This document shows, piece after piece, positions 139 to 15,137 of a stretch of 15,137 bases of DNA. The position numbers and the translations under genes are program-made. Origin of the DNA: a virus; the IMG/VR virus record IMGVR_UViG_3300010350_000694, positions 1 to 15,137 of that record. One strand, written 5' to 3'. Below the pieces are notes generated by a model. It saw only the letters and a list, made by a program, of their open reading frames with translations, made no database searches and was not told where the DNA came from. Numbering within the stretch: the stretch's first letter is position 1; each line of letters begins with the position of its first letter.

Positions 139-203
139 GCGCTTAAAGCGCCTAAATGGGTCTTAACCCATCCAGACGCTTACAACGCGAAATAGGACCT
201 ATT
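139..203 (-). terminator. Cluster of short GC-rich hairpins after the last gene; candidate end-of-operon terminator or 3' stabiliser
   Basis: Three hairpins lie just downstream (minus sense) of the stop at 213-215: GCGC/GCGC at 139-151, ATGGGT-CTTA-ACCCAT at 156-171, and AATAG-GAC-CTATT at 191-203. No clean U-tract follows. Confidence 0.35.
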
Positions 204-3092: not shown

Positions 3093-4283
3093 CTAACTGG
3101 TACGTAATGAAGTCCAACCACGCCAAATATCATGGCAAGTATTTTTCCACACATTTTTATTGGTCAAAACACCATCCCAACCAAACGCGAATGCAACTCC
3201 ACGAGCTGCCGTCTTCTTAAATACGAGAACGAAGCAATTTGCAGTTGGTAAGTCATATATTGATGTATTTGCACTCTCGTAAAAGTACCACATGACTCTA
3301 TCATTCGCAGTGTTTTTCCAATCGCCTCCACCGCAGACTCCAGACTGATTAACCCATTCAGTGTCATAATCTGTGCCGGAAGCCTTAGCTAGAACTTGTC
3401 CAGATGAACCACCGGTGGGAACCCCTACACCAGAAGGTGTTACAGGTCCCCAATCGAGGCCGTTGTATCCGAGAACCTGTCCGCTCGTTGCATCCATAGT
3501 ATATACATCCATCAAGTCATCAAGAAACATAGCACCATCAGCACCAGCTGGACCCTGCGGACCTGTAGCACCTGTATCGCCAGTATCACCTTTAGGGCCC
3601 TGAGGGCCGGTCTCTCCCTGAGGTCCCGGCTCACCCTGAATTCCCTGAGGTCCCTGTTCGCCCTGAATACCCTGAGGGCCTGTATCGCCTTTATCGCCTT
3701 TAGGTCCCTGGATACCTTGGATACCCTGAGGACCAGTTTCTCCCTGAACACCCGGTTCACCTTGTGGACCCTGAGGACCAGTTTCTCCCTGAACACCCGG
3801 TTCACCTTGTGGACCCTGAGGGCCGGTCTCTCCCTGAGGTCCCGGCTCACCCTGAATTCCCTGAGGTCCCTGTTCGCCCTGAATACCCTGAGGGCCTGTA
3901 GCTCCTGTATCGCCTTTATCGCCTTTAGGTCCCTGGATACCTTGGATACCCTGAGGACCAGTCTCACCCTGAGAGCCAGCGGTACCAGTATCACCGGTGT
4001 CACCTTTCTCACCCTTCAAGTTATGGAAAGCAAAATCAAAACTAGGCGTCAAGTCAGGTCCGCTTCTTGTTATGGATACAGTAGGAGTACCAATATTGTA
4101 ATCAACGGAAGCAGTAGCAGATATGTCGGGAACCTGTGAGCCCCCACTATCCTGAAGTTCTGTGATGTTGTCTGTGTTCTGCTTAACCTGCTTAACCAAC
4201 CAGTCTAAGTTCAACTGGTGTAGGATATACTGAAGCTTACCATAAGGATACATATTATCATTAGGTGATCTATTATCAAACAT
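3093..4283 (-). CDS. Collagen-like tail fibre / appendage protein
   Basis: 396 aa. About 53 uninterrupted Gly-X-Y triplets run from [10 protein letters not shown] to GPAGADG. The C-terminal globular domain carries two SGQVL...DW motifs typical of phage fibre tips. The gene sits after the lower collar, the position of phi29 gp12. Confidence 0.8.
3598..3962. repeat. Nested DNA repeats inside the collagen-like region
   Basis: 3598-3737 (140 bp) recurs at 3814-3962 with one 9-bp (one G-X-Y) insertion at 3901-3909; the offset is 216 bp. Between the two copies is an exact 45-bp tandem duplication, 3724-3768 and 3769-3813. Confidence 0.9.
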
Positions 4284-4284
4284 A

Positions 4285-5676
4285 TTAGTATACCTCCAAT
4301 GTCATATTGTGCTTAAAGTCGTTTGTGATAAGCTCAAACAGATTCGTCTTAATCAATTTAAGCTGGTCATTAATAAGTTCGCTTGCCTTTGTTACACCGA
4401 TGTTACCGTGACGGTTTACTTCGCTCTCATCGTTAGCATTCTCTGTGTGTCCGCCTTCTGTAGTTACAGTACCACCTTCAGTACCTGAAATAGTCTTATA
4501 ACCACCATCAGTTCCCTGTACACCAAGAGTTCCGCCTTCTGTTCCAGAATTAGTTACTGTACCAGTGTTTGTTCCTGAATGCTGAAGTTTTTCAGTACCA
4601 GTCTTGTTTGTTGTGTCAGTACCTGTTCTGAGCAATACATCAGTATCTGTACCTGTCTTACCGGTTACAGTTGTTACAGTTCCGCCATCAGTAGTTGCAA
4701 GGTTATCTGTTCCTGTATGAAGCGTGATGTCAGTGTCAGAACCTGAATATGATTTTGTCGTTGTATTGTCGCCATCATAATCGGTTGTCTCTGTTCCGCT
4801 GTCTCCAGAATTTGAACCTTTAGTCTGAGCATTAGATACAGGAAGAGACATACTGCCGCTTGTTCCGTAACCACCAGAGTTAGACTGTGAGATACCTTCA
4901 TTTACATTCGTGTCTGTACCTGCGTATCCATTCTCTGAATTGATTACAGAACCTGTCTCAAAGTGACTGAGATTAGGAGTCCTTATAGTCATATCATTAG
5001 TAGTAGTTCTCTCTGTTTCAGTAATTCCCTTACTTATTGTCTGTGAGTCAGATGTATTAAGTGTTCTATTCTGACTACCTGTAATAGCTCTTGTTTCTGT
5101 TGTCTCATCTTCGAGATTTAATGTCTTTGTGTTTTCATCACTGAGATTAAGAGTTTCTGCTTCTGATGTGTTGAATGTCGTTGTGTCCTCATATCCATTT
5201 TCAAGGTCTCTTGTCTCTGTATTACTGTTAGTCAAGTTTCTTGTTTCTGTAGATGATTTAGTGAGTGCTCTATCTTCTCTCTCGTTGTTAGTAATAGCTC
5301 TAGTCTCGAGATTATCTTCATTACCCTCAACTTCAATCGTTCTTACTGTATGTGTTGTTTCAAATACATTCTCTGTAGGGTTATATGTCCAACGGAATCC
5401 AAGACCACGAGAATAATCTTCCCAAACATTCTTACGGATACGAGACCATACACCAATTCTGTTCTTAAGAATATTAGGATCTGTATACACAGCTTCAAGC
5501 CCTTCAGTTCTGAAAAGGATGTTATCGATAAGCTCTTCCTTCTCCTGAGTGGTCATAGCACGCTGTGTAACAGTATGGTCAACTCCTGCCTCATAGATGT
5601 TAGGTAATAGGAATTTATCGAAAATGTCAGGGTAGTTATCCCATAAAGTTGCGATATCAATTGTCGGGTATCTCAT
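4285..5676 (-). CDS. Lower collar / tail tube protein (phi29 gp11-like) with expanded Thr/Ser/Gly/Asn repeat core
   Basis: 463 aa, with SD GGAGGA inside the portal 3' end (20-nt overlap). The N-terminal WTYNPTEN and C-terminal [18 protein letters not shown]...[10 protein letters not shown] resemble the remembered gp11 motifs YNPIENY and GNIGVT...Q.L. The gene follows the connector, as in phi29. Confidence 0.65.
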
Positions 5677-6595
5677 CTTTTTGTTCCTCCATTTCCTCCA
5701 TATTATATCTCTTTTCTACCTTCATATCAACTCCGAACATAGCGTTAACTTCTTCGCAGCACTTCTGCATATTCTCCAACCACAAGTCACTTAAGCAAGT
5801 TGTCTCGATGTTGTTTGCATTTGCTTCGTCTACAATAAGTCTTTCACGCTTATCGGTGTTTGCGTTAGGTATACCAACCAGAGTACAGAATTGATCATTT
5901 AAGCTTGTAAGCGCAGTCAAGATATCGTTAGCAATGAATGTCTGAGACAAATTCTGTTGGAAAGGTGACCAACCAGGCGTTCCATCAGGAGTAAGAAGGT
6001 TCTTGTCCTGTACTACTGCAGGTTCACCAGATGCTATCATCTCAAACATTTTCTTAAATGCTTCAGCACCTGATTTTGTATCAGTGGTGAAAACATAAGC
6101 GAGCTGTGAGTTAATGAAGTTGCTATTAAGTGCCTGTGATGCAAGCGCCATCTGATCTGCGTAATAATCAACGATATCAAGGATAGATGTTGAAGCAGGA
6201 TTGAAATACAGGTCACCAAAACTAGGTGTCTCCTGCAATGTGAAAAGGACACAATCATTACCAATAGTCTTCTCTACTCCAGCAAGCAACGGATTAGATA
6301 CAATGATTTTCTTAGGACTATAGAACAAATTCTGTCCCATAAATGAACAAGACAACGCAACCAATCCATATTTCTTATCTTCGAAAACTCCAATATAACC
6401 AGCTGTAAACAAGACATTTCTAAAGTGTCTAATCTGATCACGGCTCCAGTTTTCAGGGTATCTGAACTTATAAACGCTGATGCACTTCTGCAACAGATAT
6501 TTCTTGAAGTAAAGATAAAGGGGCGCATTGTATGGCGCCCCTCCCCTTGGTGAAAACAACCCGGAGCCTGACTGAGGAATGTATGCATTACTCAT
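5657..6595 (-). CDS. Portal / upper collar connector protein (phi29 gp10-like)
   Basis: 312 aa (phi29 gp10 is 309 aa), SD AAAGGAG. The segment LVGIPNANTDKRERLIVDEANANNIE...VNAMFGVDMKVEKRYN parallels the remembered gp10 segment [28 protein letters not shown]...INELYGLNVKVKFRYD. Confidence 0.85.
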   Translation of the reverse strand: MSNAYIPQSGSGLFSPRGGAPYNAPLYLYFKKYLLQKCISVYKFRYPENWSRDQIRHFRNVLFTAGYIGVFEDKKYGLVALSCSFMGQNLFYSPKKIIVSNPLLAGVEKTIGNDCVLFTLQETPSFGDLYFNPASTSILDIVDYYADQMALASQALNSNFINSQLAYVFTTDTKSGAEAFKKMFEMIASGEPAVVQDKNLLTPDGTPGWSPFQQNLSQTFIANDILTALTSLNDQFCTLVGIPNANTDKRERLIVDEANANNIETTCLSDLWLENMQKCCEEVNAMFGVDMKVEKRYNMEEMEEQKDEIPDN

Positions 6596-9140: not shown

Positions 9141-9317
9141 TTAATTCACCAACCTTTCATCCGTCAGTATTTTAGCAGGGTTAGTATCTATGTTTTCTAA
9201 TATAGAACTTGCATCTTTTATTGTATATGGATCTTCGTTTGCGCCTTCAACATAACTTCTATAGATACTGATATAATCCTCAAGTATTGTTTTTAACATA
9301 TCTTTGGTGATTTTCAT
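9141..9317 (-). CDS. Hypothetical 58-aa protein (not in ORF track)
   Basis: My own translation: MKITKDMLKTILEDYISIYRSYVEGANEDPYTIKDASSILENIDTNPAKILTDERLVN. SD AAGGAGG lies 7 nt upstream, and the stop is 4 nt before the endolysin ATG. It is soluble and acidic, so not a holin. Confidence 0.55.
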   Translation of the reverse strand: MKITKDMLKTILEDYISIYRSYVEGANEDPYTIKDASSILENIDTNPAKILTDERLVN

Positions 9318-9342
9318 ATTTAATCCTCCTTATTAGTAAAGC

Positions 9343-9413
9343 GGCGGGCAGTTCATGGGTTGTGCCTAACCCATCGCCGCCCTTCCGGGGCTAACACAAG
9401 GCGTCTGCCCGCC
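9343..9413 (-). ncRNA. 71-nt GC-rich three-way-junction RNA element (5' leader structure or small RNA; strand uncertain)
   Basis: P1 is GGCGGGCAG/CTGCCCGCC (9343-9351 with 9405-9413). One arm is ATGGGTT-6 nt-AACCCAT (9355-9374). The other arm is CGCC+GCCC-TTCCG-GGGC+8-nt bulge+GGCG (9375-9403). The element starts about 8 nt after a consensus -10. Confidence 0.4.
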
Positions 9414-9420
9414 TAACTGT

Positions 9421-9449
9421 ATTATATCATCATTATTTGGTTGCGTCAA
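9421..9449 (-). promoter_or_regulatory. Near-consensus sigma-A promoter (TTGACG-17-TATAAT with TG extension)
   Basis: On the minus strand the -35 TTGACG is at 9444-9449, the spacer is 17 nt ending in TGA, and the -10 TATAAT is at 9421-9426. It overlaps the ATPase stop codon and points into the lysin/head genes. Confidence 0.7.
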
Positions 9450-10500
9450 ATGCTTGTTCGAAAAGTACAAGGCCCAAGTACTCTTCAAACACCATTTTGT
9501 TTTGCAAGTACGCAATCCAAAGTGAGTTATGGTTGTTCATAAAGCGCTTCTTCTCTGCGTAAGATGTTCCGTACTCACGGCAAGTTCCAGTCTTATGTGT
9601 TGATACATAGAATTCACGCCTTGACTTGTGCTGATATATCGTAATGTTAGAGACAGTTACAATTGGTACATACTCATCAAGAGGGCAAGATTTGATTAGT
9701 GCTGACTCGTCTTTATAGAAGCGGTTGTTAAGTGCCATCTGGTTGAATTCACTGTTCTTGTTATCTGTCAGCTTGTAGAGAGCGGTGTGTTTCTTCCTTT
9801 CAGAGATAGGAGAAGCGAAAAGGTGGATCATACAGAGTCCTCTTTTCTCATCAATTGAAAGTGATTTGTGCTTCTCCATCATCTGTTCTGATTTCTTCAC
9901 GATATCAAGCTCAATATAAAGCGGGTTTGCAATGTCATTTGCGTTTGCAAGACAGATTACTTTTACAGGATCACGGCCTTTAATCTCACGGTTACGGTTT
10001 ACGGTCTCAACAAGGTTCAAGAAAGCCGCCGCCTCGTTTTTGATAGGACGCTCGTGCGGTTCTGGTATAAACTCATCGAAGAGAATATATTCTATTTCCT
10101 CGAAGGACATACCACGAAGGTTTGAGAAGGTGGAAAGAGCCGACATATATCCAAATGGCACTCCATCCAGTACAAGCTTCTCTGTATCGTCTTCATATTC
10201 ACAAGTATAAAGGCCCGTTAAATCCTTAGCAACAGATTTGGTGGCAATTGGTGCCACCTTGTTATCCATTTCAAGTGCTTTAAATGGGTTAGTTTCTGTC
10301 TTTGATGTAAGTTCGAATTGGATTTTGGTTCGTCTGAGATATAAAAACGGTTTGTGACTGTCATAAACCATTTTCAACGCTCCGTATGTTTTACCAGTAC
10401 CGCGTCCTCCAACACAAAAAATAAACGGACACTGTCGAGTGACCTTCATAATCTTGGGCCAATCTAAGTATCCGTTATTGTCATATATGTTTATAGCCAT
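9433..10500 (-). CDS. DNA packaging (encapsidation) ATPase, phi29 gp16-like
   Basis: Walker A is GGRGTGKTYG and Walker B is YILFDEF. The ATG at 10500 (MAINIYDNN...) has AAGGA 9 nt upstream and leaves a gp16-like ~29 aa before the P-loop. The track start (TTG at 10542) has no SD. Confidence 0.85.
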   Translation of the reverse strand: MAINIYDNNGYLDWPKIMKVTRQCPFIFCVGGRGTGKTYGALKMVYDSHKPFLYLRRTKIQFELTSKTETNPFKALEMDNKVAPIATKSVAKDLTGLYTCEYEDDTEKLVLDGVPFGYMSALSTFSNLRGMSFEEIEYILFDEFIPEPHERPIKNEAAAFLNLVETVNRNREIKGRDPVKVICLANANDIANPLYIELDIVKKSEQMMEKHKSLSIDEKRGLCMIHLFASPISERKKHTALYKLTDNKNSEFNQMALNNRFYKDESALIKSCPLDEYVPIVTVSNITIYQHKSRREFYVSTHKTGTCREYGTSYAEKKRFMNNHNSLWIAYLQNKMVFEEYLGLVLFEQAFDATK

Positions 10501-10629
10501 ATATAGGTCCTTACTTGTTAAGAGTAAGATACGAGACATCAACCGAAAACGTTGAATGAGGTATCAAGACATATATTAAGCAAAGGAGAATTATGGAAAA
10601 TGATTGATGCCTCATATCTCCTATATATG

Positions 10630-10658
10630 ATTATATCAGGTTAAGTATCCACGGTCAA
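10630..10658 (-). promoter_or_regulatory. Near-consensus sigma-A promoter (TTGACC-17-TATAAT with TG extension)
   Basis: On the minus strand the -35 is at 10653-10658 and the -10 at 10630-10635. The TG of the extension is part of the polymerase TGA stop (10636-10638). A ~120-nt leader follows before the ATPase ATG. Confidence 0.7.
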
Positions 10659-14314: not shown

Positions 14315-14572
14315 TTATAACTCATTTATATAATATGTTCTTGTGAACTCGTTGCCTTCTGTACTGTTGCAGGTGTCATAGTCAAGCACGCCGAACATTT
14401 TTTCAATAACGCCGTCCATATACTCCACAATATCCAAAAAGTCATCAAAAACGGCCTTGCCATGAGGCATATCGTGAATACCGTTATCATTGTCAAAATA
14501 ACAGCCCCATACTGTCGTTATGTCTCCGCCTCTGTTGTATGACTTTAATGTTATTTTATTGACATTTTTCAT
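14315..14572 (-). CDS. Hypothetical acidic early protein (85 aa)
   Basis: ORF with SD AAGGAG 9 nt upstream. About 15 Asp/Glu versus about 7 Lys/Arg. I recognise no family. Confidence 0.65.
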   Translation of the reverse strand: MKNVNKITLKSYNRGGDITTVWGCYFDNDNGIHDMPHGKAVFDDFLDIVEYMDGVIEKMFGVLDYDTCNSTEGNEFTRTYYINEL

Positions 14573-14587
14573 TGCCTTAATCTCCTT

Positions 14588-14671
14588 GCGTATGCCCGCC
14601 GGCTATATAGTGGCTTAATTAGCCCCATCACGGGCCCGGATATGTCACCGGGCCTGTTGTGCGACTAATTA
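14588..14671 (-). other. GC-rich structured intergenic element between the first two early genes
   Basis: The stem GGCCCGG/CCGGGCC (14633-39 with 14648-54, 8-nt loop) is nested in an outer stem TAATTAG/CTAATTA (14616-22 with 14665-71). The 13-mer GCGTATGCCCGCC (14588-14600) is 12/13 identical to 9401-9413. Confidence 0.5.
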
Positions 14672-14935
14672 TGCAAGATACTTAACGCGGCCGGCCATCA
14701 TAGCCATAACGTGGCAGTACTGATCCCATACTTTATAATTTTCGTATTTTGCTGCCTCTTCTTCTGTCTCTTCGTAGATATCAGCAAGCTCACGGCGTGC
14801 CTTATCGAAATTGCAAGCCAATACGCCACCTTTAATCCACTCTAATGCCTTCAAGTATTCCATACATTTGAACTCTTCTGCCATTCCGTAATCCTTAATA
14901 ATAGCTCCAGCCTTTTCCATCTGTCTTTTTGTCAT
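14669..14935 (-). CDS. Hypothetical early protein (88 aa), first gene from the right end
   Basis: ORF with SD GAAGGAG 8 nt upstream. Composition is predicted all-helical and charged. I recognise no family. Confidence 0.65.
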   Translation of the reverse strand: MTKRQMEKAGAIIKDYGMAEEFKCMEYLKALEWIKGGVLACNFDKARRELADIYEETEEEAAKYENYKVWDQYCHVMAMMAGRVKYLA

Positions 14936-15018: not shown

Positions 15019-15137
15019 TTATTTAATCAACATGCACAAAATTTGGTATCGATATTTGTGCAACCTGTACACTTGACACCAGCGATCGGGGAACTGGCCG
15101 AACGCCTGTTATAGGCTATGATATATATTTATTATTT
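15019..15137. repeat. Right inverted terminal repeat
   Basis: Reverse complement of 1-119: 15050-15137 is exact, and 15019-15049 has 3 mismatches. Confidence 0.97.

Follow-up and report, generated by a model that had tools for sequence, protein, structure and literature searches.

A conserved three-way-junction RNA at the head of the late operon in a phi29-like phage clade: a candidate miniature packaging RNA

The window (the whole stretch of DNA analysed here, 15,137 nucleotides (nt) of IMG/VR virus record IMGVR_UViG_3300010350_000694) carries a 71-nt GC-rich RNA element between its gene for a gp16-type DNA packaging ATPase and its lysis and structural genes. Inverted terminal repeats (ITRs) of 119 nt, 97% complementary, were found at both ends (1-119 and 15019-15137), and the window is therefore a complete linear genome of 15.1 kb. 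We identified genes for a protein-primed PolB, the gp16-type ATPase, a CHAP endolysin, a phi29-type capsid protein, a gp10-type connector and a collagen-like fibre, all on the minus strand. Pfam searches of the proteins gave matches to PF03175, PF05894, PF25622 and PF05352, and the ATPase is similar to gp16 of phi29 (PDB 7JQQ/5HD9). With terminal-protein/PolB replication, a gp16 ATPase without nuclease and a gp10 connector, the window is a phi29-like podovirus, and this makes a packaging RNA (pRNA) a legitimate hypothesis for the element. Megablast showed no close relative at the DNA level among GenBank phages, where the nearest gp16 matches were unannotated human-faecal scaffolds (43% identity); Amedibacillus and Clostridium phages came next.

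The element proved to be a genuine structured RNA, conserved in a large phi29-like clade and located at +1 of a strong promoter. Its features are summarized in Table 1. Read on the minus strand from 9413 to 9343, it begins with GGCGGGCAG-A-CGCC-UUGUGUUA-GCCC-CGGAA-GGGC-GGCG and continues through the D hairpin to its end as AUGGGUU-AGGCAC-AACCCAU-GAA-CUGCCCGCC. In RNAfold, the minimum free energy structure and the centroid were identical, both being a three-way junction at -37.1 kcal/mol, while dinucleotide shuffles of the element folded at -26.6 +/- 3.0 kcal/mol (z = -3.53; 0 of 200 as stable). The bulge tetranucleotide GUGU is complementary to GCAC in the D loop, and the pairing extends to UUGUGU/GCACAA if the two inner pairs of the D stem open. 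The GC content is 0.45 locally against 0.30-0.40 in the flanks, and reaches 0.67 inside the element. The promoter, TTGACG-17-TATAAT at 9449-9421 (minus strand), is of the host (sigma-A) type with an 11/12 match, with a spacing of 7 nt between its -10 box and the G that opens the closing helix.

Table 1. Coordinates of the RNA element, its parts and the neighbouring features in the window.
Feature	Position	Strand	Details
gp16-type DNA packaging ATPase	9433..10500	-	355 aa from ATG at 10500; PF05894 and phrog_2150
gp10-type connector (portal)	5657..6595	-	PF05352; similar to 7PV4 and phi29 portal 1H5W
-35 hexamer TTGACG	9444..9449	-	overlaps last gp16 codons
-10 hexamer TATAAT, with TG two bases upstream (extended -10)	9421..9426	-	promoter scan
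Whole three-way-junction RNA element, 71 nt	9343..9413	-	fold, covariance-model matches, covariation
A helix 5' strand GGCGGGCAG, 9 bp	9405..9413	-	pairs with 9343-9351
C helix 5' strand CGCC	9400..9403	-	pairs with 9375-9378
5'-side bulge UUGUGUUA, 8 nt (CE-loop equivalent)	9392..9399	-	GUGU pairs with D loop
E hairpin GCCC-CGGAA-GGGC, 4-bp stem, pentaloop	9379..9391	-	fold
C helix 3' strand GGCG	9375..9378	-	contiguous with E 3' strand, 0 unpaired nt between
D hairpin AUGGGUU-AGGCAC-AACCCAU	9355..9374	-	loop GCAC is the bulge partner
A helix 3' strand CUGCCCGCC	9343..9351	-	after junction linker GAA (9352-9354)
Shine-Dalgarno sequence AAGGAGG (9325-9331) and first downstream open reading frame, 58 aa	9141..9331	-	reading frame 9141-9317; head of lysis/structural operon

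A search of the protein database for gp16 homologues at E <= 1e-10 yielded 2612 proteins, whose identities graded from 98% down to about 42%. DNA was obtained around 13 of these homologues and at 80 IMG/VR loci found by gp16 alignment; an exact-peptide scan of IMG/VR with the single gp16 of the window had given no match. A covariance model (CM), R1, was built from 16 IMG/VR sequences, with the window and its close relatives excluded. With filters off, R1 found one significant match in the window genome, at 9344-9412 (44.2 bits, E about 2e-10), the next match scoring 9 bits, and the element is thus the only one of its kind in the complete genome. Over 90 sources R1 identified 79 elements, all on the gp16 strand and directly 3' of the stop codon, and five more with filters off. 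The most divergent carrier, MT836263, shares 34% gp16 identity with the window. Two related scaffolds come from human faeces. Neither R1 nor a broader model, R2, matched the cultured phages AD70P3, CI644P2, CPS1, LE1-1 and PZA, and R2 had no match in the metagenomic scaffold MT835873. A relaxed descriptor of the topology gave a background of 0-6 matches per shuffled genome, or ~0.25 once a -10 box was required.

In the Amedibacillus phage AD70P3 (L094, OP172639.1), we observed a candidate at 6296-6367 (minus strand) in the gap after gp16, directly behind a TTGACA-17-TATATT promoter. It can be written GAGGG-GUUGC-AUAUCCAA-UAGUG CCGAA CACUA-GCAAC-AGU AGGGAU ACU-...-CCCUC, with AUCC in the bulge complementary to GGAU in the loop. 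Place and topology are right, but its folding energy is unexceptional (z = -0.9 against shuffles) and no CM match was obtained, and it was not counted as a member of the family, none of whose CM-positive members is a cultured phage. A genuine element in AD70P3 would provide a test system that can be grown in culture.

Across the family, the RNA is a compact three-way junction with a 4-bp C helix, a 7-8-nt bulge, a 4-bp E hairpin and a D hairpin, closed by an A helix of 9 bp in the window and 9-16 bp in relatives. The 4-6 nt at the 3' end of the bulge are Watson-Crick partners of the D loop. The E pentaloop C(G/U)GAA is near-invariant, its G, A and A being invariant (loop variants CGGAA, CUGAA, CAGAA and CCGAA occur), and the junction linker keeps the consensus A-N-G-A. 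In the CM alignment of 53 distinct sequences, 95.7% of the cells were paired, against 57.9% in column shuffles (0 of 500 as high), while sliding the partners by 1-3 columns as a control left 30-42% paired. Changes on both sides were observed in 24 of the 26 pairs, and the covariation score was 0.94 vs. 0.20. A gap-free MAFFT alignment that was never fitted to the structure gave 96.4% paired cells and 95% in the kissing helix formed by bulge and D loop. Over the two alignments, shuffles reached 58-61% paired cells.

The support extends to each helix. All nine pairs of the A helix show two-sided changes, such as CAG/CUG to UGG/CCA in relative L001 and to GUG/CAC in L004. The C helix is 100% paired and the D stem 99%, with covariation at all four pairs of each, including AUGGG/CCCAU to ACGGG/CCCGU in the D stem of L004. 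The E stem is 100% paired, covaries and tolerates GU pairs; in close relatives GCCC/GGGC has become GCUC/GAGC. GU pairs are tolerated on this strand only (e.g., 13 GU at one E-stem pair), and selection therefore acts on an RNA in the late-gene sense.

The five bulge/D-loop pairs had been left out of the CM, so that the alignment was unfitted to them. Nevertheless, the kissing helix is 87-95% paired, and three of its positions show GC, AU, UA and CG pairs (e.g., GC 21, AU 12, UA 11 and CG 5). About 20 distinct bulge/loop combinations were found. Complementary variants include GAUAC/GUAUC (L007), UACAC/GUGUA (L096), CGGA/UCCG (L011) and ACGA/UCGU (L012), as well as GCACA/UGUGC, UUGCA/UGCAA, UGUCA/UGACA, GACCA/UGGUC and GGACA/UGUCC in the IMG/VR clade. 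The fold and the Watson-Crick pairing of bulge and loop are thus established. Among near-identical RNAs the kissing helix changes fastest, at 0.127 per pair vs. 0-0.08 in the other helices, a comparison based on 22 non-independent sequence pairs and hence suggestive; such rapid change would be expected if the specificity of an intermolecular pairing were under selection.

These results bear out most of what a sequence-only reading of the locus had described. It had proposed the three-way-junction fold of 9343-9413 and the GUGU/GCAC complementarity, both of which recur with covariation in about 80 related genomes, the position at +1 of a consensus promoter, a GC content above that of the flanks, and a Shine-Dalgarno sequence (SD) about 13 nt further on. 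The SD of the window does begin 12-13 nt past the element. The same reading had named covariation in homologous regions as a check, and absence from close relatives as a refutation; the helices covary, and the element lies in the same 115-nt gap in the closest relatives.

A near-consensus TTGACA-16/18-TATAAT-like promoter was found upstream of essentially all 74 distinct instances. Since 5-12 nt (mode 8) lie between the end of the -10 box and model position 1, transcription is deduced to start at the base of the A helix. In the family, the next SD is found 12-60 nt further on. The first downstream gene varies, and can encode a YvrJ-like small membrane protein, a ~120-aa holin, a CHAP endolysin, a scaffold-like protein or unknown 58-aa proteins. 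These represent at least five unrelated families, so the element is not a regulator dedicated to one gene. In MT835998, gp16 and PolB are encoded on the other strand, while the element (1051-1119) heads the structural operon. In L096 and L098, gp16 lies at the genome end and the element, with the kissing pair UACAC/GUGUA, is still in the gap between PolB and endolysin. The invariant unit is thus promoter, element at +1 and lysis/structural operon.

The 58-aa open reading frame (ORF) at 9141-9317 of the window had no PHROG or Pfam match. It is absent in the closest relatives, where the endolysin gene is directly 3' of the element, and in L007 a different, very basic 58-aa ORF takes its place. 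In L096, L097 and L098, which belong to the window's own group with 59% gp16 identity, gp16 has been transferred to the right end of the genome, where it lies on the opposite strand (10001-11074 of L096); the remaining gene order and the RNA element are unmoved relative to the window, where gp16 lies between PolB and the lysis genes. In the window, gp16 is driven by a second promoter, TTGACC-17-TATAAT (11/12, TG-extended), at 10658-10630 (minus strand) at the PolB end, and its -10 box is conserved in six relatives.

Other structured regions were also observed. The 135-nt gp16 leader (10501-10635) forms a long hairpin (z = -3.5) that is unconserved, only a small hairpin before the SD being common to relatives, and this hairpin in the gap between PolB and gp16 was rejected as a rival pRNA candidate for lack of conservation. 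A perfect 16-bp hairpin, AAGCGUCUGGAUGGGU-UAAG-ACCCAUUUAGGCGCUU, was found at ~146-181 (minus strand), between the end of the last late gene (ORF 213-2231) and the ITR, in a region with z = -4.5. It is probably the terminator of the late operon, and the left-end hairpin was rejected as a pRNA candidate because of this terminator-like stem. The candidate region at 14.6 kb was dismissed as a simple GC hairpin; here GGCCCGG...CCGGGCC (14573-14668, minus strand, z = -3.6) lies between the small early ORFs 14669-14935 and 14315-14572. Within the late operon, a strong terminator-like hairpin with a 10-bp stem (7 GC) and a U-rich tail is located at 6544-6517 (minus strand), ~70 nt past the stop of the capsid gene and within the first 26 codons of the connector. 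A hairpin and U tract of other sequence occupy the same place in L096 and L098, and are absent in L012 and MT835998. The hairpin may be an attenuator that sets the ratio of capsid to connector.

The ITR contains the motif UUUGUGCAACCUGUACAC, which recurs in two to three copies close to the genome end of L008-L010, directly 3' of their relocated gp16, and may be an origin or a recognition repeat for the terminal protein. The apparently odd repeats past gp16 in these genomes were rejected as a separate feature, since gp16 abuts the genome end there and the repeats are the ITR motif UUUGUGCAACCUG(N)ACA. The tail-fibre-like protein encoded at 3093-4283 (minus strand) contains collagen triple-helix repeats (PF01391) in three stretches.

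A full-text literature search retrieved no description of such an RNA, and Rfam 15 holds no matching family. In agreement with the statement of the sequence-only reading that pRNA is not known outside the Bacillus phi29 group, the papers found treat it as specific to phi29 and related Bacillus phages. A 2024 review describes pRNA as unique to these phages, a structure-based hunt with Infernal in 2025 added 12 further pRNAs, all canonical and all from Bacillus phages, and a paper on a Clostridium perfringens podovirus names pRNA only as the partner of gp16.

We favour the reading of the element as a miniature prohead or packaging RNA of this phi29-like clade, to which we assign a probability of roughly 0.55. 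A coincidental match would require an unrelated element to copy the pRNA design exactly, and this in the sole phage group in which a pRNA is known; the purines of the junction and the almost invariant E loop suggest protein contacts; the element is not tied to any one downstream gene; and the kissing helix is the fastest-changing helix among near-identical RNAs, although the sample is small. In such a mechanism, the bulge of one RNA would pair with the D loop of the next, 'hand in hand', so that the RNAs form a closed ring at the portal vertex of the prohead. Contacts with capsid or connector protein would be made by the conserved E loop and the junction purines, with the gp10 connector as the presumed docking site of the RNA, and the short A helix would be where the ring of gp16 ATPase, the presumed protein partner, docks. 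Transcribed as the 5' end of the late (lysis/structural) mRNA, the RNA would need to be freed by a processing nuclease or, in some members, through partial termination.

Several observations weigh against this assignment. The terminator scan was negative 3' of the element and a co-directional ORF follows; with no terminator and an SD within 12-60 nt, the element as encoded is a 5' leader and not a discrete gene. The sequence-only reading had set it beside the packaging ATPase gene, and the upstream gene is indeed gp16, but the adjacency is not a conserved linkage. As the element stays with the late operon where gp16 has been relocated, its position next to gp16 is incidental. The RKR motif of the phi29 connector N-terminus, the pRNA-binding part of that protein, was looked for in the connector of the window and was not found, a result that speaks neither decisively for nor decisively against RNA binding. 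Because the C and D helices are both about 4 bp, an intramolecular pseudoknot between bulge and loop is sterically conceivable. The phi29 pRNA model of Rfam, RF00044, had no match at E <= 10, either in the whole window or in 9320-9440 alone, and R1 and R2 did not find the pRNA of phage PZA. The element was likewise undetected in the cultured Guelinviridae CPS1 and LE1-1 and in the related Clostridium phage CI644P2. The packaging domain of phi29 pRNA, which binds gp16, is a long bulged A helix (nt 1-28 and 92-117, about 22 bp), whereas the A helix here is short, 9 bp in the window, and has neither conserved bulges nor the U and CCA bulges that gp16 of phi29 requires. Finally, the lactococcal phi29-like phage asccphi28 is thought to package without a pRNA and was chosen as a model for that reason. 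The pRNA analogue suggested by the sequence-only reading is supported in part: the architecture matches that of phi29 pRNA, whereas similarity to RF00044 and a terminator are absent.

The main competitor of the packaging RNA is a cis-acting 5' leader of the late operon in which the pairing of bulge and loop forms an intramolecular pseudoknot. Such a leader could dock a protein or RNA polymerase for processive transcription, as HK022 put or lambda nut/boxB do, act as a regulatory aptamer that binds a protein or a ligand, or shield the transcript from 5' exonuclease. It would account directly for the constant position at +1 of a promoter, followed by co-directional lysis and structural genes without a terminator, and for the retention of the element by the late operon when gp16 relocates. 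The equal C and D helices would place bulge and loop at similar height, much like the loop-loop contacts of three-way-junction aptamers; the conserved purine-rich pentaloop recalls a peptide-binding hairpin such as boxB, a resemblance offered as a lead; and the terminator-like hairpin at 6544-6517, seen in the window and in L096/L098, would give an antiterminator a task. However, more distant carriers lack that internal terminator, and the leader has no expression platform, there being no terminator, no conserved alternative pairing with the SD and no fixed spacing to the next gene. The equally strong gp16 promoter at 10658-10630 lacks such a structure, so a generic stabiliser need not be elaborate, and a simple hairpin would do for 5' protection. 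The sequence-only reading had put forward a 5'-terminal stabiliser or processing signal as its conservative alternative; a leader remains a live rival, but a plain stabiliser leaves the loop, the junction nucleotides and the kissing helix unexplained. For a fold in cis, it is hard to see what would be gained by rapid changes of kissing specificity between near-identical RNAs, and the topology of pRNA would have been met by coincidence in the one phage group that uses it. On balance we regard the cis-acting leader as possible but doubtful.

Membership in a known RNA class (a riboswitch, a self-cleaving ribozyme such as the hammerhead, or a tRNA-like element) is suggested by the size of ~70 nt, the three-way junction, the contact between loop and bulge and the conserved unpaired purines, which are also found in hammerheads and purine-type aptamers. 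No Rfam 15 family matched the whole window or the element alone at E <= 10, ARAGORN found no tRNA or tmRNA genes in the window, and the hammerhead core CUGAUGA...GAAA is absent from the junction. A riboswitch joins an aptamer to an expression platform, and here we found no terminator and a variable distance and sequence between element and SD. We consider this explanation very unlikely, and a role in transcription termination or at the DNA level (a leaky, branched terminator or an insulator that closes the early/gp16 unit, a cruciform, or a protein-binding site) less likely still. The closest group of the window does have a U-rich stretch past the GC-rich closing helix (GCUUUACU, GCUUUAUUU and GAUUUAUUUU), and in some members UUUUU is directly past the helix. 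Most members, however, have no U tract, the terminator scan was negative at the element, and a promoter lies between gp16 and the element, so that the transcripts starting there would be the ones terminated. In addition, the restriction of GU and UG pairs to one strand shows that selection is on RNA and not on DNA, and a terminator would need neither conserved loops nor kissing pairs. A GC-rich inverted repeat arisen by chance and without function, for which the small size is all that can be said, is practically dismissed by the folding energy (z = -3.5), the independent CM match (E about 2e-10) and the compensatory changes in about 80 genomes, down to 34% gp16 identity.

A packaging RNA at this locus would bear on a system that, in almost 40 years, has been found only in phi29 and its Bacillus-phage relatives. 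It would be the smallest pRNA found in nature and the first from outside Salasmaviridae. At half the usual size, and with carriers among hundreds of metagenomic phage genomes, it would show the spread and age of the RNA component of the motor and define the minimal RNA that bridges portal and ATPase. The broader proposal, that RNA-dependent packaging extends beyond Bacillus phages to a large clade of metagenomic phi29-like phages of 12-15 kb with a minimal prohead RNA of 67-71 nt, made as the 5' end of late mRNA and forming a ring by a bulge/loop pairing that diversifies rapidly, we hold to be evenly balanced. If it is right, about 20 natural orthogonal kissing specificities on a 70-nt scaffold would become available to RNA nanotechnology, and the question of what pRNA does would open to comparison. 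Should the element prove to be a cis-acting leader instead, it would still be a new and very well supported class of structured RNA controlling the late operon of a large phage clade.

Among other known systems, the element resembles HK022 putL/putR and lambda nut boxB in being a short structured RNA (here about 70 nt) just 3' of a phage promoter, at the head of a long operon of many genes, and in having a hairpin with a conserved purine-rich pentaloop. HK022 put, however, consists of two tandem stem-loops, whereas the element is a three-way junction with a covarying helix between loop and bulge, and lambda boxB, a lone hairpin, depends on N protein and boxA. Across the clade, the element is accompanied neither by an N-like gene nor by a conserved terminator further downstream. 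The stem-loops that stabilise mRNA 5' ends in Firmicutes and their phages share with it a stable helix a few nt from the start of transcription, but there one hairpin is enough, and conserved loops, junction nucleotides and tertiary pairing, all of them conserved in the element, are lacking. The purine riboswitch (about 71 nt) belongs to the same size class and also has a three-way junction with two arms of similar length that pair distally. In contrast to three-way-junction aptamers, the element has neither an Rfam match nor an expression platform, its strongest conservation is in a distal hairpin loop and not only in a junction pocket, and its tertiary pairs are freely covarying Watson-Crick pairs instead of fixed ones.

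The comparison with phi29 pRNA is closer. As a positive control, Rfam found the pRNA of PZA at 144.7 bits. The 5' half of the RF00044 consensus consists of an A helix (about 22 bp, bulged), 1 nt, a C helix of 9 bp and, on the 5' side, a bulge of 9 nt that ends in AACC next to the E helix; the E hairpin of 4 bp follows. In the 3' half, the C 3' strand follows with no unpaired nt, and then UUU, the D hairpin with its loop GGUU and the A 3' strand. The element differs from phi29 pRNA in its size (67-71 vs. 118-174 nt), its C helix (4 vs. 9 bp) and its junction linkers (0-1 / 0-2 / 3-4 nt vs. 1 / 3 / 0), and in having neither domain II nor a terminator of its own. It heads the late operon, whereas pRNA is a separate early unit at the genome end, and the hosts of its family are probably not Bacillus, two related scaffolds being human-faecal. 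However, the parts of the window element follow one another in the same order as in pRNA, with the ends paired in an A helix and a three-way junction, and the kissing nucleotides are at the 3' end of the bulge, abut a 4-bp E helix and pair with the D loop. Both RNAs are transcribed from a strong sigma-A promoter and are encoded by phi29-like phages with a gp16 ATPase, a gp10 connector and protein-primed replication. In both, the primary sequence is poorly conserved while the kissing pair covaries rapidly among relatives, the same fast change being reported for the pRNAs of Bacillus phages. The element thereby corresponds to the prohead-binding domain of phi29 pRNA (nt 22-84) with a short A helix added.

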